Part shown: in pieces, positions 3,421 through 49,405 of the stretch | Position numbering within the stretch: position 1 is the stretch's first letter | Layout: every line of letters begins with the position of its first letter | From: Somniosus microcephalus | Lineage: Eukaryota | Reading direction: 5' to 3' | Length of the DNA: 64,000 nt | Assembly: GCA_052327205.1 (NCBI GenBank) | Contig: CM126233.1 | Location: 10,540,001 to 10,604,000 of the forward strand | The notes under the pieces: model-generated | The model's database searches: none | What the model was told of the DNA's origin: nothing | Seen by the model: the letters and a program-made list of their open reading frames with translations, nothing else | Made by a program: the position numbers and the translations under genes

Positions 3421-5717
3421 TCCCGTCGCACTCATCCCTCCCAATGCTGACTCAGTGGACTCTGCCAGCGCATCAGCTATCACCGCCCCTCTCTACATCT
3501 CCCTCCAGAATTTCCGTTCACTTGTCCTTGCCACCCATGACTATAGTGTGAATGATTGCATCAATGTCATGCCCTTGATGGAAACATGGCTGAGGGTGTT
3601 GACACCTTCCCCCTTAATAAAGCCTCCCCATCTGACTATACCTTCTACCACTTGCCCTGTCCAGACCGCCATGGTGGTGATGTGGCTCCTATCATCAAAT
3701 TACACCTTGGTTTGTCTTCCTACTTCTCTGGCACATTCACCTCCTTTGAGCATTTCACCTTGATCCACCCCTCTCCTCTTTTTTTAAAATCCTCATTCTC
3801 TGCTGCCCACCCAAGTACCACATCAAGTTTCTCTCCGAGATATCTTCACTGTTTTCCTCCGTCAGCCTCTGCACTAAGCCACTTCTCATCCTCGGTGATT
3901 TCAACCTCCATTTTACTCATCATAGAATCATAGATCATGCCCTCTCTCCTCTGAGTTCATTGCTGTCCTATCCTCCCTTAATCTCTCCCTCCATATAAAC
4001 TTGTCTGCCCATATTCATGGCCACCTCTTTGACCTTGCCATCTCGTGTGGCCTCTCTACTTCCATCATGTCAATCACAGATAAGGCTATCTCTGATCAGT
4101 TCCTTGTATCCCTCTCCACTTCCAGCCCCCTACCCCCTCAATCCTACTTCTTTCTGTGTCTGCCCTTGGAAAAAACTCTCCCAAGTTGCTTACAACGACA
4201 ATTTCAAATTCCCAAACATCTAGTCTTTGGCCCTCCATTCACTGACATTTCTGCAGCTACCAATCTGCTCAATCACACCCTCCCCTCGACCTCTGATGCC
4301 CTTCTTCCCATTAAAACCATTACTCCCTCTCACCCTGGTATGGCCCCCATCTCCACTCCCTTAAGTCCAAGGGATGCAGACTTGAACGTTTGTGGCGGAT
4401 AACTGGTTTAACCATTCATCACCAGATCTGGCTGGACCACATAAAGCACCTTTGGGTCCTGCTCTCCTCTGCCAGAATTGCTCACTATTCCAGAATCATC
4501 CTGGAATGGCTTATTTTCTCCACTGCAACCCATCTTCTTAAACCTCTTGCCCCTGCTCTTAAACCCCTCTCCCCTGCCTCCACCACCCTCACCTCCAACA
4601 GCAAGTGCAAGGAGCTCATGGACTTCTTTGTCTCTTAAGATTGAGACCATCCTTTCAGCTGCCTCTGCCACTTCCCTCCCTTTGCCTAGCACGGCATGTT
4701 AAACTTCCTCTAAGGCTCCCCCTTGCCCTAGCCCTGAACTCGCATCATTCTCTAGTTTCTCACCCATCTCCTCTCATGCCCTCTCTGAGCTCATCTTGTC
4801 CACGAGACCCACCTCCTGCTCCCTCAGCCCTGTTTCCACCAAACTGCTGACCACCCAACTTCTTTTCCTGGCCCCCATGTTAGCGGATGTTGTTAACGGT
4901 TCCCTCTCCTCAGGTACTGTCCCCCTCCCCTTTAATTCTGTCGTTATTGACATGAATCAGTCATTCATGAAAGAAAGACTTACGAAATAATACTGAGCGG
5001 CCTACGGGTGGCGCTGTCCAGGGAGAGTATAAATAGTCGGGCACGGGCCCAGCTTGCGCAGGACATTCTTAACAGGAACTAGTGAAGGACACAACTAGAC
5101 CTCCATGTTGTAAAACAGTTGATTAAAGCTTTGTTTAATGCTTAGACCAAGTGCCTGTAGTTTTCTTACGTCAGTTATCATCTCCCTCCTCAAAAAACCC
5201 TTGATCCTTGCAAACAACTTTTCCATCTCCAACCTCACTTTCCTTTCCAAAGTCCTTGAACGTGTTGTGGCCTCTCAAATCTGTGCCCATCTTCCTGGAA
5301 CTCCATGTTTGAACCCCTCCAATCAGGTTTCCGCCCCTGCCACAGCACTGAAACTGCCCTTATCAAAGTCACAAATGACATCCTATGTGACTGTGACCAT
5401 GGTAAACTATCCCTCCTCATCCTTCTCGATCTGTCTGCAGCCTTTGACACGGTTGACCACACTATCCTCTTCCATTATCCAGCGGGGTGAGACCGCCCTC
5501 GCCTGGTTCCATGCCTATCTATCCAGTCATAGCCAGAGAATTACTTATTTTCCCGCTCCCACACCATTACCTCCACAGTCCCCCAAGGATCTATCCTTGG
5601 CCCCCTCCTATTTCTCATCTACATGCTGCCCCTCAGCGACATCATCCAAAAACTCGTCCGGTTCCACATGTACAGTGGCGACAACCAGCTCTACTTCACC
5701 ACCACCTCTCTCAACCC
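3421..5717 (+). mobile_element. Degenerate L2-like LINE, 5' part (endonuclease to RT), interrupted by a solo LTR and by Gypsy-A1
   Basis: Fragmentary translations [51 protein letters not shown], and MYSGDNQLY (a YADDTQLY remnant) just before the Gypsy insertion. Confidence 0.88.
4948..5173 (+). mobile_element. Solo LTR (226 bp) with 5-bp TSD GTTAT
   Basis: Termini TGAC...GTCA; GTTAT at 4943-4947 and 5174-5178; internal TATAAATA and ATTAAA. The L2 sequence is colinear once it is removed. Confidence 0.85.
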
Positions 5718-5978
5718 TGTATTGATTTCTATTTGGGTTCAATGACGACACATTCATGAAAGAGAATGACTTTTTATCTAAAGTATGTTCAACTCAGTTA
5801 ACAGCATTTACAGGAGACACCATCTTAGAGATCCATCTAAAACGAAAACTAAAACTAAACTGCTTGTCTCTCACATGCCCTCTGCTGGTCAGGCATAAAT
5901 AATCAAACAGGCAAATATGCTGGTAAGGCATCATAATCAAACAGGCAAATACCATCACTATTTGCTGATATCATTACA
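5718..5978 (-). repeat. 3' LTR of Gypsy-A1
   Basis: Direct repeat of 10244-10503; preceded on the minus strand by the polypurine tract AAGAAAGGGAGA (5979-5990). Confidence 0.95.
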
Positions 5979-6226
5979 TCTCCCTTTCTTAAAACAAAAG
6001 TATTTTACTTTTATCTAACAACATGTTTTCTTTGTATTACTCTGCATTTTAACTGTAACACTTAATGAACTTACATTATCATTATCATGATCAAGGTTTT
6101 TTAACCTTGTTTTGTGTGTTCACATGAAATATGTAAATACCTAGAACTTGAAGAAAGAATAAGATAACATTACTTCCTTCTATAACAAGAGTCCTTAAAT
6201 TTGCTCAATGAGTCTCTCAGGAGGCT

Positions 6227-9200
6227 TCACGTGTCTTGAGGATTTTCTGATTGAATCTGAGTTGTTGCCTCAGATGATGGTTTCTCAGCTGTGTGATCAG
6301 GTTGTTCAACAGTATCAGTCTTTTGACCTGCTGTGCGATCAGGTTGTTCAACAGTATCAGTCTTTTGACCTGCTGTGGCTGGTCCCATGAGAAGATCCTG
6401 ACGATTTCTTCTCAGAACAGCACCCTCATCTGTCTGAATGGTGTATGATCTTGGTTGTACTTCACTCAGGACAGTTCCCTTCTGAGTCCATATGTTTGTT
6501 TTGTCTTTGAACCTTACTTGGTCACCAGTGTGGAGTTCAGGTAGGTTTTGTGTTCCTCTATCATAGTAGTACTTTTGCTTTTCTTTCTGTTGTTCTTTGA
6601 ACTTCCTCACTTTCTCCCCCTCTTTTGTTTTCAGGAGGTTCTCCGGGATGGGTAGGTTTGACCTTAGCAGACATCCCATAAGGAGTTGGGCTGGTGACAT
6701 ACCACACTCGAGCGGCATTGTGCGGTATACAAGCATGCTCTGGTAGAAGTCAGTTCCACTGTCTTTTGCCTTGTACATCAGTCTTTTCACTGTCTGGACC
6801 GATTTTTCCACTAGACCATTGGACTGTGGAAAGTGAGGACTTGACGTTGTGTGGACAAAGTCCCACTCTTTGGCAAAGTGTCGGAAACTTGCATTGTAAA
6901 ACTGGGGTCCGTTGTCTGTGAAGACCTCGTTTGCCACGCCATGTCTGGAGAATAAGGCTTTCATGCATGTTATCACAGCATCTGCAGTGGTGGTGTACAG
7001 TCTACAAACCTCTGGATACAGGGAGTAATAGTCTGTGACTACAAGATAGTCCTTCCCTTGACATACGAATAGGTCAGCGCCTACCTTCTGGTAAGGTCTG
7101 TCTGGTGCTGGGTGTGGCTTTAGTGGTTTTACCGGATTGCTTGCTCGATATTTCAGGCATATTGTGCAGTTTGACACCTCATTTGTCACATCTTGGTTGA
7201 TTCGTGGCCAGTACATCACCTCTCGTGCTCTTTTCTTACACTTTTCGATTCCCAGATGTCCTCCATGGATCCTTTTTAGCATCTCTTTTCTCAGACTCTT
7301 TGGGATAACTATTTTACTTCCTTTGTAGATGATGTCTTCGACCACTGATAGTTCCGCCCTGCAGTTCCAGTACTCTGCCATGTCAGGTGAGCAGTCTTGC
7401 TTCATGTTGGGCCATCCATCCAAGGTGCTTTTCCTCAGTCGTCTCATTGTTTCATCTTTGTTTGTCTCAGTCTTTATGAGCTCCATTTTTGCATCTGCTA
7501 TGGGCAGTGCACTTGTGATCATGTCCACGTAGGCGTTCACTTTTTCATCCATTTTGGTGTTTGCGGGCTCACTTGCGTCAACAGCTCTGGACAACGTGTC
7601 TGCTGTATACATCAGCTTACCCGGTGTGTACGCAACATTCAGTGTATACCGTTGCAGCCTGATCATCATTCTTTGTATTCTAAGCGGACAGCTATTTAGT
7701 GGCTTTTGGAACAATGCAATCAAGGGCTTATGGTCAGTCTCTACACTGATTGCTTGTCCTGCCACAAACTGGTGAAATCTTTCACAGGCGTATGTGATGC
7801 TGAGCAGCTCCTTTTCTATTTGAGCATATCGCGTCTCCGCGTCTGTCATTGAGCGCGATGCATATGCAATAGGTTGCCAGTAGTCATATTTTTGCAGAAG
7901 AACGGCACCGAGCCCACTCTGTGATGCATCTGATGATATCTTGATGGGTCTCGCTGGGTCATAAAACCTCAGAACTGGTTCCTCTGTGAGCAGTTTCTTT
8001 AGATCGCTCCATGATTTCTCATGCTCATGATTCCATTCCCATTCTATGTTCTTTTCAGTTAGTCTTCTCAGTGGCGCCATCTTTTCTGAGAGGTTGGATA
8101 TGAATTTACCCATGTAGTTGGTCATTCCATTAAACCTCTGCACGTCCTTTTTGCATTGTGGCTTTGGCATATTCTCAATGGCGGACACCTTTCTGGGATC
8201 TGGTCTGATGCCCTCACTGCTAAGGATATCTCCCACGAATATCAGTTCTGTCACCCCGAGCTGGCATTTCTCTCTATTCAGCTTCAGGTTTGTTTTCCTT
8301 GTTGCTTCCAGCACTTTTTTCAGTCTCTCGTCATGCTCAGTTCTCGTGGTTCCCCATACTATGATGTCATCCATTGATGTATCAACTCCCTCCAGATGCT
8401 CATAGATCATATGAATAGTTTTGTGATACACTTCAGGAGCTGAGGCAATGCCAAATGGTAACCTTAGGAATCTGTATCTGCCAAATGGACTGTTGAACGT
8501 GCACAGTCTTGAACTTGCCTCGTCCAGTTTCATCTGCCAAAATCCTGATGATGCATCTAACTTGCTGAAATACTTTGCATTTGCAAACTGTGACATGATT
8601 TCCTCACGTGTAGGAAGCTTGAAGTGCTCTCTCTTTATTGCTCTGTTTAGATCTCTTGGATCCAGGCAAATTCTGAGCTTTCCATTCTTTTTGTCCACAA
8701 CGACGAGGGAACTCACCCGCTCTGTTGGCTCATCTATCTTCTGAATCACGTTCAGGCTTTCCATCCTGTCCAACTCTGCCTTCAGTTGCTTTTGAAGAGC
8801 AAACGGAACTTTTCTGCATGGATGTATGACCGTTGTCATACTTTTATCTACTCTGATCGTGTGTTCTCCTGGAAGGCAGCCTAGACCCTTAAATAGGTCG
8901 TTGTACTCTTTCATGAGTTCATCATAGACTGTCTCTCCTTCGCTTTCCACAACGAGGACTCTCTTTACCAGGTTCAGTCTCTCACAGGCTTTTAAACCTA
9001 GTATGGCCTGCACATCCTTTGGCACCATGATTAATGCTAGCGTGTGCTCTCTGTCCTTGTGTGTCACTTTGACAATGCATCCTCCTTTCACTGGTATATT
9101 AGTACCTGAGTATCCTGTCACTTTTACTTTTATTCCATGTATCTTTGGTCTGGGTCTAATTTTCTTAAAATCAGTCTCTGATATCACATTAACTTGTGCT

Positions 9201-9841
9201 CCAGTATCCAATTTAAATGGAATATGTATGTCATTCACTTTTAGTGTCAACATCCAGTCTCTTTTTTCTTTTTTGTTTTCAGACACAACATCTACATAGA
9301 ACTCCTCTATCTCGCTTTCATCTACTGCATGGACCTTGCTTTGTTGCGCTTGGTTCTTACAGCAACGGGCATAATGGTTGTTTTTGTTGCAACTATTGCA
9401 TGTTTTACCATATGCTGGACACTTTTTTGGTGTATGCTGTGTACCGCATTGACTACATGACTTTCGATTGCCCCTTTCATTTTTGTTCGCTGGCCACGCC
9501 TCTTTTTTCACATTGGCGCTCTTTTTGTTAAACGGTTTGTGTCCGTTCTTTCTCACTGCATCCACGTTGCAGCTACTGTCACTGAACAGCTCCTTTGCCT
9601 GCGACTTCACAGTCTCTGTAGCCCTACACAGTGCTATGGCTTTTCCCAGGTCTAGATTTTGCTCTCTTAGCAGTCTTTCCCTTAGACCATTATCTGGAAT
9701 ACCACACACCAGTCTGTCTTTTATCAGCGAGTCTGTCAGTCCCCCAAATTCACATGTTTTGCTTCGGTTTCTCAGTTCAGTCACATACTGATCAATAGTC
9801 TCTCCCGTTTTGTGTACACGTGAAAAATCTGTGCCTCTCAA
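6227..9841 (-). CDS. Gypsy gag(C-terminal part)-pol polyprotein: zinc knuckles, protease, RT, RNase H, integrase
   Basis: 1204-aa ORF with CxxC...H...C knuckles, protease LDTGA, RT LDASSGFWQ / LPFG / SMDD, RNase H DAS...EKELL...TDHKPL, integrase HHCC and FTDNGPQF...SNGLVE. Confidence 0.95.
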   Translation of the reverse strand: MRGTDFSRVHKTGETIDQYVTELRNRSKTCEFGGLTDSLIKDRLVCGIPDNGLRERLLREQNLDLGKAIALCRATETVKSQAKELFSDSSCNVDAVRKNGHKPFNKKSANVKKEAWPANKNERGNRKSCSQCGTQHTPKKCPAYGKTCNSCNKNNHYARCCKNQAQQSKVHAVDESEIEEFYVDVVSENKKEKRDWMLTLKVNDIHIPFKLDTGAQVNVISETDFKKIRPRPKIHGIKVKVTGYSGTNIPVKGGCIVKVTHKDREHTLALIMVPKDVQAILGLKACERLNLVKRVLVVESEGETVYDELMKEYNDLFKGLGCLPGEHTIRVDKSMTTVIHPCRKVPFALQKQLKAELDRMESLNVIQKIDEPTERVSSLVVVDKKNGKLRICLDPRDLNRAIKREHFKLPTREEIMSQFANAKYFSKLDASSGFWQMKLDEASSRLCTFNSPFGRYRFLRLPFGIASAPEVYHKTIHMIYEHLEGVDTSMDDIIVWGTTRTEHDERLKKVLEATRKTNLKLNREKCQLGVTELIFVGDILSSEGIRPDPRKVSAIENMPKPQCKKDVQRFNGMTNYMGKFISNLSEKMAPLRRLTEKNIEWEWNHEHEKSWSDLKKLLTEEPVLRFYDPARPIKISSDASQSGLGAVLLQKYDYWQPIAYASRSMTDAETRYAQIEKELLSITYACERFHQFVAGQAISVETDHKPLIALFQKPLNSCPLRIQRMMIRLQRYTLNVAYTPGKLMYTADTLSRAVDASEPANTKMDEKVNAYVDMITSALPIADAKMELIKTETNKDETMRRLRKSTLDGWPNMKQDCSPDMAEYWNCRAELSVVEDIIYKGSKIVIPKSLRKEMLKRIHGGHLGIEKCKKRAREVMYWPRINQDVTNEVSNCTICLKYRASNPVKPLKPHPAPDRPYQKVGADLFVCQGKDYLVVTDYYSLYPEVCRLYTTTADAVITCMKALFSRHGVANEVFTDNGPQFYNASFRHFAKEWDFVHTTSSPHFPQSNGLVEKSVQTVKRLMYKAKDSGTDFYQSMLVYRTMPLECGMSPAQLLMGCLLRSNLPIPENLLKTKEGEKVRKFKEQQKEKQKYYYDRGTQNLPELHTGDQVRFKDKTNIWTQKGTVLSEVQPRSYTIQTDEGAVLRRNRQDLLMGPATAGQKTDTVEQPDRTAGQKTDTVEQPDHTAEKPSSEATTQIQSENPQDT

Positions 9842-10118
9842 ACGTCACGTTATGTTTAGGTATGCAGTAGGCCTCAAACTGTTCCATTATTTTATCCAGC
9901 TTCATTTTGTCTCCATCAGCAGCGAATGTGAAGTTATTATACACCTCCAGCGCTTCATCACCCACGACATGTAAGAACACTGACGCTTTCATTTTATCAC
10001 TTTTCTCATCAGCTCCGATTGCCGCTAAATACAACTCCAAACGTTGTTTGAATCTCCTCCAATTTTCAGCCACATTACCTGTCAACTGAAGCTTCGCCGG
10101 TGGGTGTAAACCTTCCAT
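9792..10118 (-). CDS. Gypsy gag N-terminus, separated from the main ORF by a 2-nt deletion
   Basis: MEGLHPPAKLQLTGNVAENWRRFKQ...; the copy at 47530-48330 reads straight through this point (FFTCVQKTGETIDQY). Confidence 0.9.
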   Translation of the reverse strand: MEGLHPPAKLQLTGNVAENWRRFKQRLELYLAAIGADEKSDKMKASVFLHVVGDEALEVYNNFTFAADGDKMKLDKIMEQFEAYCIPKHNVTFERHRFFTCTQNGRDY

Positions 10119-10225
10119 TTTTCACTTCGTTAGCTATTCTCCAAAGGTAAGTAACGATGTTCTCTTTTGGCTTGCTAATATGAAGAGAGCTGATTTAACT
10201 TCAGATTTTTCCTCTTCATCTCTTT

Positions 10226-10243
10226 CAATCACTTCTGACACCA
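10226..10243 (-). promoter_or_regulatory. Primer-binding site, tRNA-Leu type
   Basis: TGGTGTCAGAAGT immediately inside the 5' LTR, complementary to a tRNA-Leu(CAA)-like 3' end; two nucleotides shorter than the PBS in copy A2. Confidence 0.8.
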
Positions 10244-10503
10244 TGTATCGATTTCTATTTGGGTTCAATGACGACACATTCATGAAAGAGAATGACTTTT
10301 TATCTAAAGTATGTTCAACTCAGTTAACAGCATTTACAGGAGACACCATCTTAGAGACCATCTAAAATGAAAACTAAAACTAAACTGCTTGTCTCTCACA
10401 TGCCCTCTGCTGGTCAGGCATAAATAATCAAACAGGCAAATATGCTGGTAAGGCATCATAATCAAACAGGCAAATACCATCACTATTTGCTGATATCATT
10501 ACA
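10244..10503 (-). repeat. 5' LTR of Gypsy-A1
   Basis: Direct repeat of 5718-5978; adjacent to the PBS. Confidence 0.95.
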
Positions 10504-11166
10504 AACCCCTCCACTGTCTGATTTGTCAAACTGCTTGTCCAACATCTGTTTCCTAGCCACCGACTCCATCCCTCTCCCTGGCAACTGTCTGAGGCTTATC
10601 CAGACCGTTCAGAACCTTGGTATCATATTTGACCCCGAGATGAGCTTCCGACCACACATCCATGCCATCACCAAGACCAGCTATTGCCACTCTGTAACAT
10701 CGCTCGACTCCGCCCTTGCCTCGGCTCATCTGCTGCTGAAACTCTCATCCATGCCTTTGTTACCTCTAGACTTGACTGTTCCAACGCACACCTGACTGGT
10801 CTCCCACGTTCTACCCTCCCTGAACTTGAGGTCATCCAAAACTCTGCTGCCCGTAACCTAACTCGCACCAAGTCCTGTTCACCCATCACCCCTGTGCTCG
10901 CTGACCTACATTGGTACCCGGTCCGGTGATGCCTCAGATTCCAAATTTTCATCCTTGTTTTCAAATCGCTCCATGGCCTCTCTACCTCTCTCTCCTCCTT
11001 TTAAGATGCTATATAAAATCTACCTCTTTGACCAAGCTTTTGGTCGCCTGTCCTAACTTCTTTTCGTCTGGCTCGGTGTCAAATTATGTTTGTGAATGCT
11101 CCTGTGAATCGCCTTGGAGCGTTTTACTGCATTAAAGGTACTATATGAATACAAGTTGTTGCTGTT
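10504..11166 (+). mobile_element. 3' continuation of the L2-like LINE split by Gypsy-A1
   Basis: NLGIIFDPEMSF and [17 protein letters not shown]...IQNSAAR motifs, then the typical tail ending TACAAGTTGTTGCTG. Confidence 0.88.
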
Positions 11167-11174
11167 TTTGTTGA

Positions 11175-11380
11175 TGCACACTGGGTAACACACACTCCAG
11201 ACAGTGACACACACTAGGTCACACTCCAGACAGTGATGCACACTGGGTCACACTCCAGACAGTGACACACACTGGGTCACATTCCAGACAGTGACACACA
11301 CTGGGTCACACAGTCTAGACAGTGATGCACGCTGGCTCATAGTCTAGACAGTGAGACACACTGGGTAACAGCCTAGAGAG
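11175..11380. repeat. About 28-30-bp minisatellite (ACACACTGGGTCACACTCCAGACAGTG)
   Basis: Roughly seven tandem units; the same unit resumes at 13885-14010. Confidence 0.85.
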
Positions 11381-11384
11381 CAAC

Positions 11385-13878: not shown

Positions 13879-13884
13879 TGATAA

Positions 13885-14010
13885 ACACTGGATAACACTC
13901 AGTCTGAAGAGTGAGACACTAAGTAACAGTCAGTCTAGAGAGTAATGCACACTGGGTAACAGTCTAGACAGTGATACACACTGGGTAACATTCAGTGTAG
14001 ACAGTGATAC
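13885..14010. repeat. Right half of the ACACTGGGTAACAGTCTAGACAGTG minisatellite
   Basis: Same unit as 11175-11380. Confidence 0.75.
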
Positions 14011-15162
14011 AACAGCAACAACAACTTGCATTTATATAACGCATTTAACGTAGCAAAACATCTCAAGGTGCTTCACAAGATTAGAAATCAAAATTTGACA
14101 CCGAGCCACATAAGGAGATATCAGGACAGATGACCAAAAGCTTGGTTAAAGAGTTCGGTTTTAAGGAGCGTCTTAAAAGAGGAGAGAGAGCTAGAGAGGA
14201 GAGCGAGCTAGAGAGAAGGAGATGTTAGTGAGGGATTTCCAGAGCTTAGGAACTAGGGAGCTGAAGGCACAGCCGCCAATGGTGGAGAGATTAAAATACG
14301 AGATGCACAAGATGCCAGAATTGGAGGAGTGCAGAGATCTCCAAGGCTTGTCGGGGCTTGGAGGAGGTTACAGAGATAGAGAGGGGCGAGGCCATGGAGG
14401 GATTTGAAAAACAAGGATGAATTTTTTAAAATTGAGGTGTTGCTGGACCGGGAGCTAATGTTGGTCAGCGAGCATATGGGTAATGGGTGAACGGGACTTG
14501 GTGCAAGTTAGGATATGGGCAGCAGAGTTTTGGATGAGCTCAAGTTTATGTAGTGTAGAAGATGGGAGGCTAGCCCGGAGAGCATTGGAATAGTCAAGTC
14601 TGCAGATGACAAAGGCATGGATAAAGGTTTCAGCAGCAGATGAGCCAGGCAGGGGTGTGGAGTCGAGCGACGTCATGCAGGTGGAAGTAGGCAGTCTTGG
14701 TGATGAAATGGATATGTGGTCGGAAGCTCATCTCATGGTCAAACACAACACCAAGGTTGTGAACGGTTTGGCTCAGCTTCAGACAGTTGCCAGTTAAAGG
14801 GATGGAGTCGGTGACTAGGGAACAGAGTTTATGGCGGGAACCGAAGACGATGGCTCCAGTCTTCCCAATATTTAGTTGGAGGAACTTTCTGCTCATCCGA
14901 TACTGGATGTCGAATAAGTAGACAAATCAGAGACAGTGGAGGGGTCAAGAGTGGTGGTGGTGAGATACAGCTGAGTGTTGTCAGCGTGCATGTGGAACCT
15001 AACGTGTTTTTGGATAATGTCGCTGAGGGGCAGCATGTAGATGAGAAATAGGAGGGACCCATGGATAGTTCTTTGGGGGACTCTGGAGGTAACAGTGTGG
15101 GAGCAGGAAGATAAGCCATTACAGGTGATTCTCTGGCTACGATTAGATAGATAAGAATGGAA

Positions 15163-15270
15163 ATAACAACAGATGACGCTGGAAAAACTCAGCAGGCCAG
15201 GCAACATCCGTGGAGAGAGAAATAGAGTCAACATTTCAGGTCGAAACCCTTCTTCAGAACTCTATCGTAG
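15163..15270 (-). mobile_element. 108-bp Penelope-derived insert carrying a hammerhead motif, 15-bp TSD
   Basis: TAGATAAGAATGGAA at 15148-15162 and 15271-15285; the insert is homologous to the Penelope terminal repeat at 22458-22560. Confidence 0.82.
15224..15263 (-). ncRNA. Minimal type I hammerhead ribozyme motif
   Basis: Minus strand AGAGTT-CTGAAGA-AGGGTTTCGACCT-GAAA-TGTT-GACTCT: CUGANGA and GAAA cores with stems I and II. Confidence 0.65.
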
Positions 15271-16569
15271 TAGATAAGAATGGAATCGGGCGAGTGCAGT
15301 CCCACCCAGCTGGACGATGGAGGAGAGGTTTTGGCGGAGGATAATGTGGTTAACCGTGTTGAAGGTTACAGACAGGTCGAGAAGGATGATGAGGGATAAT
15401 TTACCACGGTCACAGTCACATTGGATGTCATTTGTGACTTTGATCAGAGTTGTTTCAGTACTGTGGCAGGGGCGGAAACCTGATTTGAGGGATTCAAACA
15501 TGGAGTTCCGGGAAAGATGGGCACGGATTTGGGAAATGACAACACGTTCAAGAACTTTGGAGATGAAAGGGAGGTTGGAGATGGGCAGTAATTTGCAAGG
15601 ACAGAGGGATGAAGGGTGTTTTTTTTGAGGATGGGGATGATGGACGGCAGATATGAAGGGGAGGGGGACAGTACCTGAGGAGAGGGAACCATTAACAACA
15701 TCAGCTAACATGGGGGCCAGGAAGGGAAGTTGCGTGGTCAGTAGAAATAGGGCCAAGGGGGCAGGAGATGGCTCTTATGGACAAGATAAGCTGAGAGAGG
15801 GTATGATGGGAGATAGGAAAGAAACTAGAGAAAGATGCGAGATTAGGGCAGGGGGAACCTTACAGAATGTTTGGCCCCGTGAACTAGGGGAAGAGAGGGA
15901 AGTGACAGAGGCAGCTGAACGGATGGTCTCAATCTTTGTGACAAAGTCCATGACCTCCTCACACTTGTTGTTGGAGGTGAGGGTGGAGGAGGGTAGTTTA
16001 AGAAGATGGTTTGTAGTGGAGAAGAGAAGCCAAGGGTTATCTTTGCATTCTGGGATGATCCTGGAATATTGAGCAGTTTTGGCAGAGGAGAGCAAATGGC
16101 AGTGCTTGACGTGCTCCAACCAGATCTAGCGGTGAATAGTTAAGCCAGTTGTCTGCTATTGACATACCCATGATGGACACTGTCTAGCGTGCAATACACA
16201 CTACATACCTCAGTCCTAGAGAGCGATAGACACTGGATAGCACACTGGCGAGAGAGTGATTCACCATGCTTGGGATGATTTTTGTGTGCCATTGGCTGTT
16301 GTGACACCCAGTGACTGCTGTCCAGTGAGGTGATAATTCTTGGGTTTTATATGATAGTGAATTGGACCCTTACTTTATTGCATGTCACGAACCCTGTGTA
16401 TATTATTTAACATTGTCTTAACCAAAGGTACAGGCTCACCTTATAGCACCACCACTTTCTGTTGGCGAGTCACTCAAATTAAAAGCAAAATTGAATATTA
16501 GATCTTATTTGTTAAAAGATGTCAGTTTAGGACACAAGCAAAAGTTATTTTCTTGTTTTAAGGGGCACA

Positions 16570-31496: not shown

Positions 31497-31825
31497 TGTG
31501 ATGAAATATTCCATTCATCACTGCCTGTGACTGTGGTCGGTTTCAGGTTTCTCCTCACCATTGTATTGTATATCACTGCCTGTGACTGTGGTTGGTTTCA
31601 GGTTTCTCCTCACCATTGTATTGTATATTGGAATGTATGGAATGCATTGTGTGTAGGGCTCCGCCCATACCTGGCCCCTATGTAAGCAAGCAGTCTGGCC
31701 TCATATCCAGTACTGCAGATCTCCAGATGGAAGATACCTCTCTCCACTGCGTGTTATCTTCTAAGTTAATAAAAGCCTTGTTTTGTTTCGCTAACATCGA
31801 GTCTCGGAATTATTGAGGCACATCA
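31497..31825 (+). repeat. 5' LTR of Gypsy-B, with an internal 55-bp tandem duplication (31517-31626)
   Basis: Direct repeat of 35611-35939; AATAAA at 31768-31773. Confidence 0.95.
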
Positions 31826-31851
31826 ATTTTATTAACTTATTCTTCAACACA

Positions 31852-32004
31852 ATGGACCGACTCCTGAAACCCGAACGTTTGGATTTGGATCAGCATGCTC
31901 CGGACGCATCAGCACGCTTCGGACACTGGTTTATGTGTATGGAATTCTTCCTGGACAATTCCGCAGCCGTCAAAGACGCTACGGAATTCTGCGGAATTGG
32001 GTAA
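31852..32004 (+). CDS. Gypsy-B gag N-terminus, out of frame with the main ORF from about 31975
   Basis: MDRLLKPERLDLD...FGHWFMCME starts 26 nt after the LTR and resembles a gag start. Confidence 0.7.
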   Translation: MDRLLKPERLDLDQHAPDASARFGHWFMCMEFFLDNSAAVKDATEFCGIG

Positions 32005-35000: not shown

Positions 35001-35600
35001 TGGAAAGCAGTCACTCTAGCTCTAAGAACCAAGGGCCTCCCTATCTCCCGCTGGCAGGAAGTCCTCTCGGATGTGCTCCATTCGATACGGTCGCTATTGT
35101 GTACTGCCACTAATGCCACGCCTCATGAACGAATGTTTGTCTTTCCCCGGAAATCCACCTCAGGCGTATCCATGCCGTCATGGCTCTCCACCCCAGGTCC
35201 GGTATTCGTGCCAAGGCATGTGAGGGGCCACAAGACGGACCCTCTCGTGGAGCCAGTGTACCTACTCCACGCCAACCCCCAATACGCATATGTCCGGCAC
35301 GCCGACGGAAGGGAGGACACCGTGTCCATAAAAGACGTCGCCCCAGCCGGTAACGACAACAACCACGGCGATAGCAGCGACAACGATCGCAGCAACCCTT
35401 ACCCACCCACTACTCTTTCATCACCCCCGGAAGAACATCGACCAATGGCACCCCCACCAACTACCCTTTCAACAACCCTGGCGGCACCCCCGGCAGAGAC
35501 TCAGGAGGCCCCCGGGGACACCCAGCCGACACCCGCGACACCACATCAGCCACGTCGGTCGCAGAGGACTACCAAACCCCCAGACAGACTAAATCTATAG
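31935..35600 (+). CDS. Gypsy gag-pol polyprotein
   Basis: 1221 aa with two zinc knuckles (CYFCG...H...C; CFKCGKKGHFGKVC), protease LIDSGS, RT IDLKSAYHQ / VPFG / YLDN, RNase H ESDAS...EKEA...TDQ, integrase HHCC and IHTDRG...GNGQVE. Confidence 0.96.
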   Translation: MYGILPGQFRSRQRRYGILRNWVSHRVYPLIQDADTYLAACDILKAHYQQPTNEVYARHLLATRAQRPGESVEEFLGTLKMLGKDCKCRDVKAAVYTDELVRDAFITGLSSTYIRQRLLEKTGLDLKQAADTARSLEVAQRNSDAYSSARAVHAATCAPRAPPSWKASSPPGSPTPSGPRSPPRSPTAATRRGPNCYFCGQPKHTRNLCPAKGTTCFKCGKKGHFGKVCRGNPAGKPTAGKPATAACAPWERPSWTPSCPTSWGPPSYEQTAWTPSCLDQGPTVASVTVDQTRPHPLSKSMVDIEVNGCRVKCLIDSGSTESFIHPELAQQLSLKVVPTQGTISMADKTQTSTILGYCTVQLSVNGTVYDNFKVLIMKNLCASVILGLDFQCNHQSITLKYGGSQPPLTVCGLSTLKVKPPSLFANLTPNCRPIATKSRRYSWEDRRFIATEVDRLLKERIIERSNSPWRAQVVVVRGSKKKRMVIDYSQTINRYTRLDAYPLPRISEMVNQIAQYRVFSTIDLKSAYHQLPIRPEDRPYTAFEVNGRLYQFLRVPFGVTNGVSVFQREMDRMVDDHHLQATFPYLDNVTICGHNQQDHDSNLERFLETAQKLNLTYNEDKCVFNTTRLCILGSVVENGEIGPDPDRLRPLRELPLPNTPKALKRCLGLFSYYSQWVPNYSDKARPLLKASSFPLSAEAHAAFKSIKQDIEWATLQAVDENTPFQVESDASDFALAATLNQAGRPVAFFSRTLQGPEIRHSSVEKEAQAIVEAVRHWRHYLAGKRFTLLTDQRSVAFMFNNKQRGKIKNDEILRWRIELSTFEYDIIYRPGALNESPDALSQGMCASATGDRLQTLHNDLCHPGVTRLFHFIKSRNLPYSIEEVRSLTRNCRTCAECKPRFYRPDRAHLIKATRPFERLSLDFKGPLPSVDRNVYFLNIVDEYSRFPFAFPCPDMTSATVIKCLNSLFCLFGMPSYIHTDRGASFMSEELRQYMLSRGIATSRTTSYNPRGNGQVERENGTVWKAVTLALRTKGLPISRWQEVLSDVLHSIRSLLCTATNATPHERMFVFPRKSTSGVSMPSWLSTPGPVFVPRHVRGHKTDPLVEPVYLLHANPQYAYVRHADGREDTVSIKDVAPAGNDNNHGDSSDNDRSNPYPPTTLSSPPEEHRPMAPPPTTLSTTLAAPPAETQEAPGDTQPTPATPHQPRRSQRTTKPPDRLNL

Positions 35601-35610
35601 AAAGGGTGAA

Positions 35611-35939
35611 TGTGATGAAATATTCCATTCATCACTGCCTGTGACTGTGGTCGGTTTCAGGTTTCTCCTCACCATTGTATTGTATATCACTGCCTGTGAC
35701 TGTGGTTGGTTTCAGGTTTCTCCTCACCATTGTATTGTATATTGGAATGTATGGAATGCATTGTGTGTAGGGCTCCGCCCATACCTGGCCCCTATGTAAG
35801 CAAGCAGTCTGGCCTCATATCCAGTACTGCAGATCTCCAGATGGAAGATACCTCTCTCCACTGCGTGTTATCTTCTAAGTTAATAAAAGCCTTGTTTTGT
35901 TTCGCTAACATCGAGTCTCGGAATTATTGAGGCACATCA
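35611..35939 (+). repeat. 3' LTR of Gypsy-B
   Basis: Direct repeat of 31497-31825; both LTRs yield the same 74-aa ORF in the track. Confidence 0.95.
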
Positions 35940-37140: not shown

Positions 37141-37141
37141 A

Positions 37142-38685: not shown

Positions 38686-38694
38686 GGTTCTGCT

Positions 38695-41600
38695 TGATGG
38701 GACAGTGTAGAGGGAGCTTTACTCTGTATCTAACCCATGCTGTACCTGCCCTGGGAGTGTTTGATGGGACAATGTAGAGGGAGCTTTACTCGGTATCTAA
38801 CCCGTGCTGTACCTGCCCTGAGAATGTTTGATGGGACAGTGTAGAGGGAGCGTTACTCTGTACCTAACCCGTGCAGTGCCTGTCCTGGTAGTGGTTGAAC
38901 AGGCAGTGTTGAGGGAGTTTTACTCTGTATCTAACCTATGCTGTACCTGCCCTGGGAGTGTTTGATGGGACAATGTAGAGGGAGCTTTACTCGGTATCTA
39001 ACCCGTGCTGTACCTGCCCTGGGAGTGTTTGATGGGACAATGTAGAGGGAGCTTTACTCGGTATCTAACCCGTGCTTTACCTGCCCTGAGAATGTTTGAT
39101 GGGACAGTATAGAGGGAGCGTTACTCTGTACCTAACCCATGCAGTGCCTGTCCTGGTAGTGGTTGAACAGGCAGTGTTGAGGGAGTTTTACTCTGTATCT
39201 AACCTATGCTGTACCTGCCCTGGGAGTGTTTGATGGGATAGAGTAGAGGGAGCTTTACTCTGTATCTAACCTATGCTGTACCTGCCCTGGGAGTGTTTGA
39301 TGGGACCGTGTAGAGGGAGCTTTTCTCTGTATCTAACCCGTGCTGTACCTGCCCTGGGAGTGTTTGATGGGACCGTGTAGAGGGAGCTTTTCTCTGTATC
39401 TAACCCGTGCTGTACCTGTGCTGAGAGTGTTTGATGGGTCAATGTACACAAGGCCCTAAAACTCTCTGCCTCTCTTTCCTCCTTTAAGATTCTCCTTAAA
39501 ACCTACCTCTTTGACCTTTTGGTCATGTGCCCTAATATCTCCCTATGTGGCTCGGTGTCAAATTTTGTTTTATAATGCTCCTGTGAAGCACCTTGGGACG
39601 TTGTACTAAGTTAAAGGCACTATATAAATACAAGTATCTAACCCGTGCTGTACCTGCCCTGGAGTGTTTGATGGGACAGTGTAAAAGGAGCTTTATAAGA
39701 ACATAAAAATTAGGAGCATGAGTTGGCCATATGGCCCTTTGGGCCTGCTCCGCCATTCAATAAGATCACGGCTGATCTTCAACCTCAACTCCACGTTCCC
39801 ACCTGATCCCCATATCCTTTCATGCCCCTAGATTCCAAAATCTATCTATCTCAGCTTTGAATATACTCAACGACTCAGCATCCACAGCCCTTTGAGGTAG
39901 AGAATTCCAGAGATTCACAACCCTCTGAGTGAAGAAATTCCTCCTCATCTGAGTCTTAAATGACCGACCCCTTAACCTGAGACTATGCCCCTAGTTCTAG
40001 ACTCTCCAGCCAGTGGAAACAACCTCGCAGCATCTACCCTGTCAATCCCTCTCAGAATCTTATATGTTTCAATGAGATCACCTCTCATTCTTCTAAACTC
40101 CAGAGTATAGGCCCAATCTATTCAATATCTCATAGGACAACCATCTCATCCCAGAGATCAATCTAGTGAACCTTTGTTGCACTGCCTCTAAGGCATGTAT
40201 GTCCTTTCTCAGATAAGGAGACCAAAACTGCACAGTTCTCCAGGTGTGGTCTCAAAAAGCCCTGTACAATTGTAGAAAGACTTCCTTACTCTTATACTCC
40301 AACCCCCTTGCAATAAAGGCCAACATGCCATTTACCTTCCTAATTGCTTGCTGTACCTGCATGCTAACTTTCTGTGTTTCCTGTACGAGGACACCTAAAT
40401 CTGTGAACACCAACATTTAATAGTTTCTCACCATTTAAAAATATTGTTTTTCTATTCTTCCTACTAAAGTAAATAACCTTACATTTCCCCACATTAGACT
40501 CCATCTGCCACCCCATTGCCCACTCACTTAACCTGTCTATACCCCTTTGCAGGCTCTTTGTGTCCTCCTCACAACTTACTTTCCTACCTAGCTTTGTATC
40601 GTCTGCAAACTTGGATACATTGCTCTCGGTCCCTTCATCTAAGTCATTAATATAGATGTAAATAGCTGAGGCCCAAGCACTGATCCTTGTGGCACCCCAC
40701 TAGTTACAGCCTGCCAACCTGCGTGTAGAGGGAGCTTTACTCTGTATCTAACCTGTGTTGTACCTGCCCTAGGAGTGTTTGATGGGATAGAGTAGAGGGA
40801 GCTTTACTCTGTATCTAACCCATGCTGTACCTGCCCTAGGAGTGTTTGATGGGATAGAGTAGAGGGAGCTTTACTCTGTATCTAACCTGTGCTGTACATC
40901 CCTGGGAGTACTTGATGGGACAATGTAGAGGGAGCTTTACTCTGTATCTAACCCGTGCTGTACCTGCCCTAGAAGTGTTTGATGGGACAATGTAGAGGGA
41001 GTTTTACTCTGTATCTAACCCATGCTGTACCTGCCCTGGGAGTGTTTGATGGTACAGTGTAGAGGGAGCTTTACTCTGTATCTAACCCATGCTGTACCTG
41101 CCCTGGGAGTGTTTGACGGGACAGTGCAGAGGGAGCTTTACTCTGTATCTAACCCATGCTGTACCTGCCCTAGGAGTGTTTGACGGGACAGTGTAGAGGG
41201 AGCTTTACTCTGTATCTAACCCATGCTGTACCTACCCTGGGAGTGTTTGATGGGACAGTGTAGAGGGAGCTTTACTCGGTATCTAACCCGTGCTGTACCT
41301 GCCCTAGAAGTGTTTGATGGGACAATGTAGAGGGAGTTTTACTCTGTATCTAACCCATGCTGTACCTGCCCTGGGAGTGTTTGATGGTACAGTGTAGAGG
41401 GAGCTATACTCTGTATCTAACCTGTGTTGTACCTGCCGTAGGAGTGTTTGATGTGACAGTATAGAGGGAGCTTTACTCTGTATCTAACCTGTGCTGTACG
41501 TGACCTGGGAGTGTTTGATGGGGACAGTGTAGGGGGAGCCTTACTCTGTATCTAACCCCTGCTGTACCTGCCCTGGGAGTGTTTGATGGGACAGTGTAGA

Positions 41601-41765
41601 GTGAGCTTTACTCTGTATCTAACCCGTGCTGTACCTGCCCTGGGAACGTTTGGTGGGACAGTGTAGAGGGAGCTTTACTCTGTATCTAACCAGTGCTGTA
41701 CCTGCCCTGGGAGTGTTTGATGGGACAGTGTAGTGGGAGCTTTACTATGTAACCAATGCTGTATA
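38695..41765. repeat. 67-bp tandem repeat array, interrupted by L2 (39452-39634) and CR1 (39696-40720) fragments
   Basis: Unit GGGACAGTGTAGAGGGAGCTTTACTCTGTATCTAACCCGTGCTGTACCTGCCCTGGGAGTGTTTGAT with period 67 (38699 to 38766); blocks at 38695-39450, 39635-39695 and 40725-41765. Confidence 0.95.
39696..40720 (-). mobile_element. CR1 3' portion (RT end plus 3' UTR)
   Basis: ATAAGAACATAA tail; antisense of SKFADDTK (GTATCGTCTGCAAACTTGG) and SGVPQGSVLG. Confidence 0.88.
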
Positions 41766-44310: not shown

Positions 44311-44371
44311 AAACTGTCTGCCTGTTGTACTATCTTGGAGCTGTGGGGGGAGTGGAAGTATTCATTTGCTA

Positions 44372-45301
44372 ATAATAACAACTTGTATTTATATAGCGCC
44401 TTTAATGTAGTAAAACATCCCAAGGTGCTTGACAGGAGTGTGATAAGACAAAAATTAACACCGAGCCACATAAGAAATTAGGGCAGATGACCAAAAGCTT
44501 GGTCAAGGAGGTAGGTTTTAAGGAGCGTCTTAAAGGAGGAAAGCGAGAGAGGCGGAGAGGTTTAGGGAGGGAGTTTCAGAGCTTAGGGCCTAGGCAGCTG
44601 AAGGCACGACCACCAATGGTTGAGCGATTATATTCAGGGATGCTCAAGAGGGCAGAATTTGAGGAGCGCAGATATCTCGCGTGGTTGTGGGGCTGAAGGA
44701 GATTACAGAGATGGGGAGGGGCGAGGCCATGGAGGGATTTGAAAACAAGGATGAGAATTTTGAAATCAAGGCGTTGCTTAACTGGGAGCCAATGTAGGTC
44801 AGCGAACACAGGGGTGATGGGTGAATGGGACTTGGTGCGAGTTAGGACACGGGCAGCCGAGTTTTGGATGACCTCAAGTTTACGTAGGGTAGAACGTGGA
44901 GGTCAGCCAGGAGTGCGTTGGAATAGTCAAGTCTAGAGGTAACAAAGGCATGGATGAGGGTTTCAGCAGCAGATGAGCTGAGGCAGGGGCGGAGACGAGC
45001 AATGTTACGGAGGTGGAATTAGGCAGTCTTAGTTATGCCATGGATATGTGGTCGGAAGCTCATTTCAGGGTCAAATATGACACCAAGGTTGCGAACAGTC
45101 TGGTTCAGCCTCAGACAGATGTTAGGGAGAGGGATGGAGTTGGTGGCTAGGGAACGGAGTTTGTGGCGGGGCTCAAAGACAATGGCTTCGGTCTTCCCAA
45201 TATTTAATTGGAGAAAATTTCTGCTCAGTCGGACAAGCAGTGTGTCAATTTAGAGACTGTGGAGGGGTCGAGAGAGGTGTTGGTGAGTTAGAGCTGGGTG
45301 T
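44372..45301 (-). mobile_element. L2-like LINE, 3' part, split by Gypsy-A2
   Basis: ADLHWLPVKQRLDFKILILVFKSLHGLAP; tail AATAATAACAACTTGTATTTATATAG. Confidence 0.9.
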
Positions 45302-45351
45302 TGTATTGATTTCTTTGTGGGTTCAATGACGAGACATTTATGAAAGAGAAT

Positions 45352-46036
45352 GGCCTAGAAATTGGGTTTTGGCGCAGCAACGGCTTTAGCGCCGGAAGTT
45401 AGTGCCGGAGCTAAGTCGCGCTGGTCGGGCCAAAAATTCACTACTTCTGCGCCCAAACGGCTGCCGGCGCTGCTAAAAGCTGTTAGCGCCAGAAAACTGG
45501 CGCTATGCGCTGAATTTCGGCGCTATTCCGGCGCTGCGGCGCCCGCTGCGGTGCGGCAGGTTCGGGAAGTGCAGGCCTCCTCCTTCCCTTAAGGAGGACC
45601 TGCCTGCACCCGGCCGCGGCCCGCGATAATCTTATTAAAAATGAGCCCGGCACCTCGGACAAGTGCCGGGCTTGCTTCTGTTCCGGGGGGGGGGGGGGGA
45701 AGTCCGGGGAGGGAGCTGCGGCCAGGCGGGCGGCGGGAAAGCGGCCGGCCGCCGCGGGGCCTTTAATGCGCCGGCGCAAACTTGTGTAAGGCACCTCTGC
45801 CAGAACGTTGCTTGCGGCTGCAACGGGCGAGGCGGCCGCAAGTCAATTTCCCAGTTCGGGCGGGTTACCGTGGCAACCGGGACACTGCGCACACCGATGA
45901 CGTCATCGGTGCCGGCGCAGCGCTACCGGTCTACCGCGGCGGAAGGGCCCCAGGCAATTTAGGCGCCGGCGCCAATTGCAGCGCTAGGCCCTCTAGCGCC
46001 GCAAAATCGGCGCTAAGGGCACTGAATTTCTAGGCC
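45352..46036. mobile_element. Harbinger-type MITE (685 bp), perfect 12-bp TIR GGCCTAGAAATT, 3-bp TSD AAT
   Basis: The sister LTR shows the empty site (AGAGAATGTCTTTT); AAT at 45349-45351 and 46037-46039. Confidence 0.93.
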
Positions 46037-46478
46037 AATGTCTTTTAATCTAAAGTCTGTTCAACTCTTTATCAGCATTTACAGGAGACATCATGCTAGT
46101 GATGCATCTAGAACGAAACTGAAACGAAACTAAACTGCCTTGCTTGTCTCGGTCACATGCCCTCTGCTGGTCAGGCACAAGCAATCAATACATGCAAACA
46201 TGCTGGTAAGGCATCATAATCAAACAGGCAAATACCATCTCTATTTGCTGATATCATTACATCTCCTTTTCTTAAAACAAAAGTATTTTACATTTAACTA
46301 ACAACATGTTTTCTTTGTATTAATCTGCATTTTAACTGTAACACTTAATGAACTTACATTATCATTATCATGATCAAGGTTTTTTAACCTTGCTTTGTGT
46401 GTTCACATGAAATATGTCAATACACTAGAACTTGAAGAAAGAATAAGATAACATTACTTCCTTCTATAACAATAGTCC

Positions 46479-47690
46479 TTAAATTTGCTCAATGAGTCTC
46501 TCAGGAGGCTTCACGTGTCTTGAGGATTTTCTGATTGATTGTCCTTGAATCTGAGTTGTTGCCTCAGATGATTGGTTCTCAGCTGTGTGATCAGGTTGTT
46601 CAACAGTATCAGTCTTCTGACTTGCTGTGGCTGGTCCCATGAGACGATCTCGACGATTTCTTCTCAGAACAGCACCCTCATCTGTCTGAATGGTGTATGA
46701 TCTTGGTTGAACTTCACTCAGGACAGTTCCCTTCTGAGTCCATATGTTTGTTTTGTCTTTCAACCTTACTTGGTCACCAGTGTGGAGTTCAGGTAGGTTT
46801 TGTGTTCCTCTGTCATAGTAGTACTTTTGCTTTTCCTTCTGTTGTTCTTTGAACTTCCTCACTTTCTCCCCCTCTTTTGTTTTCAGGAGGTTCTCCGGGA
46901 TGGGTAGGTTTGACCTTAGCCGACGTCCCATAAGGAGTTGGGCTGGTGACATACCACACTTGAGCGGCGTTGTGCGGTATACAAGCATGCTCTGGTAGAA
47001 GTCAGTTCCACTGTCTTTTGCCTTGTACATCAGTCTTTTCACTGTGTTTGCGGGCTCTCCTGGGTCAACAGCTCTGGACAACGTGTCTGCTGTATACATC
47101 AGCTTACCCGGTGTGTACGCAACATTCAGTTCATCATAGACTGTCTCTCCTTCGCTTTCCACAACGAGGACTCTCTTTACCAGGTTCAGTCTCTCACAGG
47201 CTTTTAAACCTAGTATGGCTTGCACATCCTTTGGCACCACGATTAATGCTAGCGTGTGCTCTCTGTCCTTGTGTGTTACTTTGACAATGCATCTTCCTTT
47301 CACTGGTATATCAGTACCTGAGTATCCTGTCACTTTCACTTTTATTCCATGTATCTTTGGTCTGGGTCTAATTTTCTTAAAATCAGTCTCTGATATCACA
47401 TTAACTTGTGCTTCAGTATCCAATTTAAATGGAATGCGTATGTCATTCACTTTTAGTGTCAACATCCAGTCTCTTTTTTCTTTTTTGTTTTCAGACACAA
47501 CATCTACATAGAACTCCTCTATCTCGCTTTCATCTACTGTATGGACCTTGCTTTGTTGCGCTTGGTTCTTGCAGCAACGGCATAATGTTGTTTTTGTTGC
47601 AACTATTGCATGTTTTACCATATGCTGGACACTTTCTTGGTGGATGCTGTGTACCGCATCGACTACATGACTTTCGATTGCCCCTTTCAT
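46479..47690 (-). pseudogene. Gypsy-A2 protease fused in frame to a linker and the integrase C-terminus
   Basis: FKLDTEAQVN protease followed by junctions YDEL|NVAYTPGK and EPANT|VKRLMYK relative to A1. Confidence 0.9.
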
Positions 47691-48330
47691 TTTTGTTCGC
47701 TGGCCATGCCTCTTTTTTCACATTGGCGCTCTTTTTGTTAAACGGTTTGTATCCGTTCTTTCTCACTGCATCCACGTTGCAGCTATTGTCACTGAACAGC
47801 TCCTTTGCCTGCAACTTCACAGTTTTTGTAGCCCTACACAGTGCTATGGCTTTTCCCAGGTCTAGATCTTGCTCTCTTAGCAGTCTTTCCCTTAGACCAT
47901 TATCTGGAATACCACACACCAGTCTGTCTTTTATCAGCGAGTCTGTCAGTCCCCCAAATTCACACGATTTGCTTCTGTTTCTCAGTTCAGTCACATACTG
48001 ATCAATAGTCTCACCCGTTTTCTGTACACATGTGAAAAATCTGTGCCTCTCAAACGCCACGTTACGTTTAGGTATGCAGTAGGCCTCAAACTGTTCCATT
48101 ATTTTATCTAGCTTCATTTTGTCTCCAACAGCAGCGAATGTGAAGTTATTATACACCTCCAGCGCTTCATCACCCACGACATGTAAGAACACTGACGATT
48201 TCTTTTTATTACTTTTCTCGTCAGCTCCAATTGCCGCTAAATACAACCCCACACGTTGTTTGAATCTCCTCCAATTTTCAGCCACATTACCTGTCAACTG
48301 AAGCGTCGCCGGTGGGCGTAAACCTTCCAT
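47530..48330 (-). CDS. Gypsy-A2 gag (266 aa; frameshift after the second knuckle)
   Basis: Nearly identical to the A1 gag pieces; a 1-nt deletion near 47587 versus A1 shifts the frame. Confidence 0.88.
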   Translation of the reverse strand: MEGLRPPATLQLTGNVAENWRRFKQRVGLYLAAIGADEKSNKKKSSVFLHVVGDEALEVYNNFTFAAVGDKMKLDKIMEQFEAYCIPKRNVAFERHRFFTCVQKTGETIDQYVTELRNRSKSCEFGGLTDSLIKDRLVCGIPDNGLRERLLREQDLDLGKAIALCRATKTVKLQAKELFSDNSCNVDAVRKNGYKPFNKKSANVKKEAWPANKNERGNRKSCSRCGTQHPPRKCPAYGKTCNSCNKNNIMPLLQEPSATKQGPYSR

Positions 48331-48438
48331 TTTTCACTTCGTTAGCTATTCTCCAATGGTAAGCAACGATGTTCTCTTTTGGCTTGCTAATTTGTGGAGA
48401 GCTGATTTAACTTCAGATTTTTTCTCTTCATCTCTTTC

Positions 48439-48457
48439 AATCCCACTTCTGACACCA
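48439..48457 (-). promoter_or_regulatory. Primer-binding site, tRNA-Leu type
   Basis: TGGTGTCAGAAGTGGGATT adjacent to the 5' LTR. Confidence 0.85.
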
Positions 48458-48729
48458 TGTATTGATTTCTTTGTGGGTTCAATGACGAGACATTTATGAA
48501 AGAGAATGTCTTTTAATCTAAAGTCTGTTCAACTCTTTATCAGCATTTACAGGAGACATCATGCTAGTGATGCATCTAGAATGAAACTGAAACTAAACTA
48601 AACTGCCTTGCTTGTCTCGGTCACATGCCCTCTGCTGGTCAGGCACAAGCAATCAATACATGCAAACATGCTGGTAAGGCATCATAATCAAACAGGCAAA
48701 TACCATCTGTATTTGCTGATATCATTACA

Positions 48730-49405
48730 GGTGTCATTAGCATACATGTGGAAACTGAAGCCGTGTTTTCAGATGATGTCACCAAGGGGCAGCATATAGA
48801 TGAGAAATAGGAGGGGCCCAAGGATAGATCCCTGGGGGACCCCAGAGGTAATGATGCGGAGTGGGAAGAGAAGCCATTGCAGGTGATTTTCTGGCTACGA
48901 TTAGATAGATAAGAATGAACCAGGCGAGTGCAGTCCCACCCAGCTGAACGATGGTGGAGAGGCGTTGGAGGAGGATGGAGTGGTCAACCATGTCAAAGGC
49001 TGCAGACAGGTCAAGAAGGACGAGGAGGGATAGTTTACCATGGTCACAGTCACACAGGATGTCATTTGTGACTTTGATGAGAGCTGATTCGGTACTGTGG
49101 CGGGGCGGAAACCGGATTGGAGGGATTCAAACATGGAGTTCCGGGAAAGATGGGCATGGATTTGGGAGGTGACAACATGTTCAAGGACTTTGGAGAGGAA
49201 AGGGAGGTTGGAGATGGGGCGGTAGTTTGCAAGGACGGAGGGGGTCAAGGGTTGGTTTTTTAGGAGAGGGGTGATGATGGCAGATTTGAAGGAGAGTGAA
49301 CCGTTAACAATGTCAGCTAACATGGGAGCCAGAAAAGGAAGTTGGGTGGTCAGCAGTTAATGTGGGAGTAGGGTCGCGGGAGCAGGAAGTGGGTCTCATG
49401 GACAG
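48730..49405 (-). mobile_element. L2-like LINE, 5' part (RT), split by Gypsy-A2
   Basis: LANYRPISNLPFLSKVLE...ESLQSGFRP; resumes exactly at HMYANDT. Confidence 0.9.

Follow-up and report, generated by a model that had tools for sequence, protein, structure and literature searches.

Independent insertion of two Gypsy elements of one family at sites 32 nt apart in an L2-type LINE of Somniosus microcephalus, a probable case of ordinary nesting

The window analyzed here is a 64,000-nt stretch of the Somniosus microcephalus genome, and all coordinates are counted from its first nucleotide. It contains two members of one Gypsy family, A1 and A2, which were inserted separately into two copies of an L2-type LINE, L2#1 and L2#2. 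A1 occupies positions 5718 to 10503 on the minus strand (4786 bp, ends TG...CA), antisense to its host L2#1. Its 3' LTR (5718 to 5978, minus strand, 261 bp) has an adjoining polypurine tract, and its 5' LTR (10244 to 10503, minus strand, 260 bp) is followed in the element sense by a primer-binding site that we take to resemble the tRNA-Leu type. The target site duplication (TSD) AACCC is found on the plus strand at 5713 to 5717 on the left and 10504 to 10508 on the right. A2 (45302 to 48729, minus strand, 3428 bp) is an internal double-deletion derivative that lies in the sense orientation of its host L2#2, with a 5' LTR of 272 bp at 48458 to 48729 (minus strand) and a 3' LTR at 45302 to 46261 (minus strand). 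Its TSD, GGTGT, or ACACC in L2 sense, is present at 45297 to 45301 on the left and at 48730 to 48734 (plus strand) on the right. The two LTRs match with 258 matches and 2 mismatches in A1 and with 272 matches and 3 mismatches in A2, where the two parts of the interrupted LTR match at 50/50 and 222/225. When the two elements are compared, their LTRs have 235 matches and 23 mismatches with several gaps (about 9% apart), and the shared inner parts are approximately 97% identical at aligned columns. The insert that interrupts the A2 3' LTR (45352 to 46036) is GC-rich and 685 bp long, its inverted ends are perfect over 12 bp, and it has a duplication of 3 bp (AAT); it looks like a young non-autonomous DNA transposon, presumably PIF/Harbinger-like.

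The 5' part of L2#1 (4395 to 5717, plus strand) is truncated and decayed and carries the reverse transcriptase (RT) motif MYSGDNQL at 5668 to 5691, and the 3' part resumes behind A1 at 10509 to 11171 on the plus strand. L2#2 lies on the minus strand, with a 3' part at 44374 to 45301 that ends in the TSD GGTGT and a 5' part at 48735 to 49404 that reads MYANDT up to the insertion. A third copy, L2#3 (14009 to 16156, minus strand), has the motif MHADNTQL and is empty at both sites. We take these LINEs to be L2 from their motifs; no match carried that name. The host RT matched endonuclease-RT LINEs of fishes and chondrichthyans, with Callorhinchus milii as the best match (52%), and a YADDxQLY-type motif was present in 88 of the 120 LINE matches listed. 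An excerpt of PMC5381603 gives L2 and CR1 as the elements that prevail in the elephant shark. Host DNA in the window amounts to 51.3 kb, of which 13% is L2. L2#1 and L2#3 face tail to tail, and related minisatellites with units of 29 to 33 bp (11191 to 11370 and 13879 to 14011) lie directly at their 3' ends. Arrays of a 67-bp unit were also observed at 38694 to 39446 (11 copies), between two L2 3' fragments, and at 40723 to 41751 (15 copies), as was an unbroken and possibly young 837-aa RT frame from a LINE of a different clade at 56097 to 58610.

All three L2 copies are 5' truncated, without the endonuclease part, and are mutually 74 to 86% identical. Alignment with the LINE protein P0132 revealed 3 stops in L2#1, 7 in L2#2 and 4 in L2#3, plus frame switches, and YADD is mutated in every copy (YSGD, YAND and HADN, respectively). 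As the LTR pairs are about 99% identical, compared with 74 to 86% for the hosts, we infer that the insertions took place long after host decay. The preliminary description had proposed that insertion at this site inactivates the LINE. This is not supported: truncated, stop-laden and mutated at YADD, the hosts left nothing to inactivate, and inactivation as a benefit was rejected.

Both elements lie on the minus strand, L2#1 on the plus strand and L2#2 on the minus strand, and A1 is therefore antisense and A2 sense to its host. A1 follows directly after MYSGDNQLYFTTTSL, and A2 interrupts MYANDT|QL. With the ATG of MYSGDNQL at 5668, the position in L2#1 homologous to the A2 target site is 5681 to 5685 (plus strand), which is empty in L2#1, and the TSDs thus start 32 nt apart on L2#1 (5681 versus 5713). 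In L2#3 the two sites fall at positions 1178 and 1211 of that copy, 33 nt apart, and neither is occupied (about 14942 to 14981). In L2 sense, each of the two TSDs has the form AxxCC and is followed by C. The two members of the family in the window lie within one 37-nt L2 zone, and two of the three L2 copies that cover the zone carry the family, at different nucleotides and in opposite orientations. The preliminary description was exact in each of these particulars, namely the TSDs, the 32-nt spacing, the opposite relative orientation, the LTR variants and the empty third copy. It had also regarded the insertions as separate events, which the differences in TSD, orientation to the host and LTR variant bear out. 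A single ancestral insertion that was multiplied, either through segmental duplication or through the copying of an L2 with the Gypsy element inside it, and that later shifted would account for the same family in the same host family at nearly the same place. However, opposite orientations to the host, two different perfect TSDs, a site that is empty in the other host in each case, LTRs about 9% apart between the elements and hosts only about 80% identical make such an origin next to impossible, and the differing junctions refute copying.

In the A1 gag-pol frame (6227 to 9844, minus strand, 1205 aa), the domains follow the Ty3/Gypsy order of protease, RT, RNase H and integrase; the gag start lies in another frame, with a single break near 9810 to 9826, and the frame stops short of the last residues of its homologues. 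The structural marks of Ty3/Gypsy elements are likewise present (TG...CA LTRs, primer-binding site, polypurine tract and a TSD within 4 to 6 bp). A protein search identified 618 relatives among 3,445 candidates. Of the 120 listed, those with a name were for the most part called "K02A2.6-like" or "Gypsy integrase-like" and came from fishes and marine invertebrates, and the best named matches among those listed came from Erpetoichthys (62%) and Nothobranchius (52 to 57%). In size, LTR length and 5-bp TSD the family fits the table of lineages in PMC3286476, seen in excerpt, under Mag, whose traits there are short LTRs, one or two frames and a mostly 5-bp TSD; this is a fit of features, and no relative listed bore the name of a Mag reference. 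A primer of the tRNA-Leu or tRNA-Ser type is a further mark of the Mag lineage.

A2 has no RT and lacks the greater part of both RNase H and the integrase; besides gag and protease, it retains the integrase C terminus and 29 codons from the end of RNase H. Neither these losses nor the insert in its LTR figured in the preliminary description. If it already had its present form at insertion, it was presumably not mobile by its own enzymes. Both deletion joints show short shared sequence and are in frame through to the natural stop, with one frame switch near 47583, and two in-frame joints would arise by chance 1 time in 9; A2 may be a member of a translatable non-autonomous variant. Its right flank, GGTGTCA (48730 to 48736), equals bases 2 to 8 of the element's own primer-binding site. 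As A1 shows no such match, the 7 nt shared at A2 are probably due to chance, and homology to the primer-binding site was rejected as an insertion guide.

The preliminary description had suggested that a targeting module be sought in the integrase C terminus. The A1 integrase (6230 to 7327, minus strand) comprises an HHCC domain, a D-D-E core, a beta-barrel C-terminal domain and a disordered tail and has no chromodomain. A structural model built from 60 sequences (mean pLDDT 86.7) predicts a zinc domain, a core with the acidic triad, a long helix and one beta-barrel ending at residue 314, beyond which the tail has a pLDDT below 50. Its closest structural matches were the foamy-virus and Ty3 intasomes (Ty3 7q5b, E 1e-16). 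No Pfam family was detected at an E value of 1 or less in the last 207 aa, and neither Pfam nor the model indicated an extra folded module besides the single barrel. The chromodomain was absent from all 4 close homologues scanned (Pfam, E value of 1 or less), and the GPY/F motif was found in 0 of 120 homologues. Because an RRNR-type motif is conserved in 111 of 120 homologues, with a median tail of 73 aa, the disordered tail of A1 is ordinary for its family. In Ty3 integrase, a chromodomain follows the SH3 domain, according to the part of 10.1101/2021.07.27.453949 available; such a chromodomain after the C-terminal domain, which marks chromovirus or Ty3-type targeted integrases, is absent from A1. 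No targeting module was thus recognizable by Pfam or in the model, two tests that would miss a short Ty1-like targeting peptide.

These data bear on the proposal that a vertebrate Gypsy element without a chromodomain is steered to the zone at the LINE catalytic codons in both orientations, through a short stretch of the integrase able to bind a host protein on the L2 RT segment, with the dead L2 as a harmless landing site. Tethering would give a spread of tens of bases and both orientations, the pattern seen here, and both family members of the window lie in the zone. In Ty1 a small targeting domain suffices (PMC7459421, in excerpt), and the disordered A1 tail could hide one; targeting of one element by another exists in Tx1 LINEs, as the excerpted text of PMC4494074 describes. 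However, there is no folded targeting module, unlike in Ty3, the third L2 copy is empty, and the family would gain nothing from inactivating dead hosts. Moreover, the part of PMC3286476 available describes Mag-type elements with varied 5-bp TSDs. Taken with the contig data below, these points make dedicated targeting improbable.

The segment of L2 encoding the catalytic motif had been described as C/A-rich, which was true to a mild degree: the 60-nt zone, as measured in the empty copy, has a C content of 0.43 and a C+A content of 0.67, equalled or surpassed by 7 to 8% of the 60-nt windows of that copy, but the zone is not special in composition or structure. A hairpin or G-run feature was rejected, as both hairpin energy and G-run score were ordinary. 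The integrase might nevertheless prefer a local sequence or DNA shape near YADD, for example AxxCC in the C-rich strand, and the zone would then be a weak intrinsic hot spot, with insertion there raised several-fold. The shared AxxCC and following C of the two TSDs and the position of the zone in the top 7 to 8% for C and C+A are consistent with this, and a precedent is given by the Alu motif at which about 1 in 175 HIV sites lies, by the portion of 10.1101/2022.10.26.513837 available. That portion also describes the Alu hot spots as exact, with nearby positions unenriched, whereas the A1 and A2 sites differ and no common palindrome was seen. Together with the likelihoods given below, this leaves a weak hot spot unlikely, though less so than dedicated targeting.

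Three other insertions in the window lie outside the zone. A 226-bp solo LTR of another family (4948 to 5173, TGAC...GTCA, TSD GTTAT) is located in L2#1 about 760 nt upstream; contigs cover it no less deeply than the A LTR, indicating that this family is also very abundant. A short insert in L2#3 (15160 to 15270), about 190 nt upstream and with a probable 15-nt duplication, is related to 22458 to 22556 and 24120 to 24222 and is SINE-like. Gypsy B (31497 to 35939) lies outside L2, with the TSD CCTTC, and belongs to a distant family, being 22% identical to P0002; with LTRs identical over 329/329 bp and an unbroken 1254-aa frame, it is a very recent insertion.

We then estimated how often such a pair would arise by chance. 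Two uniform insertions would fall into different L2 copies within 32 nt of each other on the L2 map with a probability of 4.8e-4, or 6.8e-4 if any dispersed repeat seen in the window is allowed; given that both are in L2, the value is 0.027. Counting same-copy pairs as well, the first and last of these values become 6.5e-4 and 0.035. Such low values lend real support to the preference suspected in the preliminary description. In public contigs the depth over the A LTR was 0.5 to 2.1 million, compared with 13 to 65 for single long contigs, which suggests roughly 10^4 to 10^5 LTR copies of the family, although such depths are no copy number. Assuming a genome of 3.5 Gb, chance alone would yield approximately 0.1, 2 and 11 same-window pairs genome-wide for 5,000, 20,000 and 50,000 copies, respectively, of the A family alone. 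A single pair chosen beforehand is unlikely to line up in this way; when a whole genome is searched in hindsight, finding one is not unlikely. The preliminary description had allowed for chance with only two events; a few such pairs per genome are expected at about 10^4 to 10^5 copies.

The same calculation separates the alternatives by strength. The low per-pair chance (4.8e-4 to 6.8e-4) speaks for a hot spot of some kind, but with a 5-fold enrichment the likelihood of the pair does not exceed that under chance overall (ratio 0.8), and with a 10-fold enrichment it is only 3 times as high, which argues against a weak one. With a 50-fold enrichment the pair becomes 75 times likelier than by chance, which favors dedicated targeting. 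Over the priors tried, the posterior for targeting ranged from 0.01 to 0.94, so the conclusion that the pair is a coincidence depends on a low prior for targeting. By chance, about 0.4% of insertions would fall into the 65-nt zone.

Of 20 listed runs, 4 supplied the public contigs that we compared with positions 4395 to 5978, which include the L2#1 5' part, both sites and one A1 LTR. The runs provided 57,228, 60,093, 5,975 and 9 contig records, the last being near uninformative. An LTR end joined to L2 was found in none of the best 15 of 1,501 joints and in none of 12 spaced joints listed from 199. The joints listed were all within L2 or across the solo LTR, none at either A-family LTR end, and rested on 1 to 6 contigs per run, the depth of a few loci. 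If 20% of 10,000 to 50,000 copies were in the zone, about 15 to 77 loci would be expected per position and orientation, compared with 0.3 to 1.5 by chance, and joints produced by strong targeting should have ranked unless detection was below roughly a tenth. The comparison is weakened by the divergence of L2#1 at 5654 to 5717, where depth is down about 6- to 10-fold and many loose ends occur at 5653; it had no positive control junction, one LTR end lies at the last base of the compared stretch, and the ranking rule is unstated. Target-specific retroelements are recognized by a single target sequence in over 20% of their flanks, as given in PMC4494074; here the count was 2 of 2 in the window and none in the best 15 of 1,501 public-contig joints, a weak test. 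Independent copies of such elements would also share the nucleotide and the orientation, which A1 and A2, 32 nt apart and oppositely oriented, do not. In a second organism, a single LTR-end contig (1 of 9 records) had a 66-nt flank that is not on this part of L2, a further point against dedicated targeting. These observations argue against a strong hot spot; an enrichment of 5- to 10-fold would have escaped them, which leaves room for a weak one.

Other public data added little. The 20-nt LTR end matched metagenome contigs at 3 loci over 20 to 22 nt only, which we attribute to chance, and a scan of viral contigs for pol gave 7 pattern matches, 0 of them confirmed. Proteins reading from the LTR into the flank numbered 0 among 7 candidates and 0 in a representative library; the best pol match is only 80% identical, and the host is therefore probably absent from these libraries, which makes this result uninformative.

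We consider it most likely, at a probability of about 70%, that the 32-nt closeness is a coincidence of the kind expected somewhere at high copy number and reflects ordinary nesting. An integrase that makes a 5-bp staggered cut, as the TSDs show, and that probably has low sequence specificity would often hit L2 because L2 is abundant, at about 13% of local DNA, and this pair would have been noticed through happening to line up. Read as ordinary nesting, the pair has little significance. If targeting were true, an LTR integrase with no known targeting domain would be aiming at a LINE in a vertebrate, which would point to a new tethering route. A literature search that missed most subscription journals and Repbase retrieved neither a Gypsy family targeting L2 nor any other case of this kind.

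The A family shares with K02A2.6-like or Mag-type Gypsy elements a single gag-pol frame (PR-RT-RH-IN), a length of about 4.8 kb, short LTRs and a 5-bp TSD, and neither has env or a chromodomain; for Mag, however, the excerpt of PMC3286476 records no target specificity. Its integrase has the same overall fold as those of Ty3 and Ty1 (Ty3 intasome 7q5b), but where Ty3 has a chromodomain behind the barrel, A1 is predicted to have only a disordered tail. As with HIV-1 in Alu, repeated integrase insertions are seen at corresponding places in an abundant repeat; in that system, as far as 10.1101/2022.10.26.513837 was available, there are thousands of sites at exact palindromic positions, compared with two sites 32 nt apart that have no palindrome in common. 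Tx1L, Tx1-Mar and other element-targeting Tx1 LINEs similarly prefer another mobile element as a target, but they are non-LTR elements in which the endonuclease sets the site (PMC4494074, in excerpt), whereas the A family uses an integrase and occupies two positions in two orientations. Nested plant LTR retrotransposons also show independent insertions at similar positions in both orientations, such as Phygy into Tcn1; according to the excerpted PMC6911290, their hosts are LTR elements rather than LINEs, the similar sites are at least 50 bp apart, and coding domains are among the less-targeted regions.
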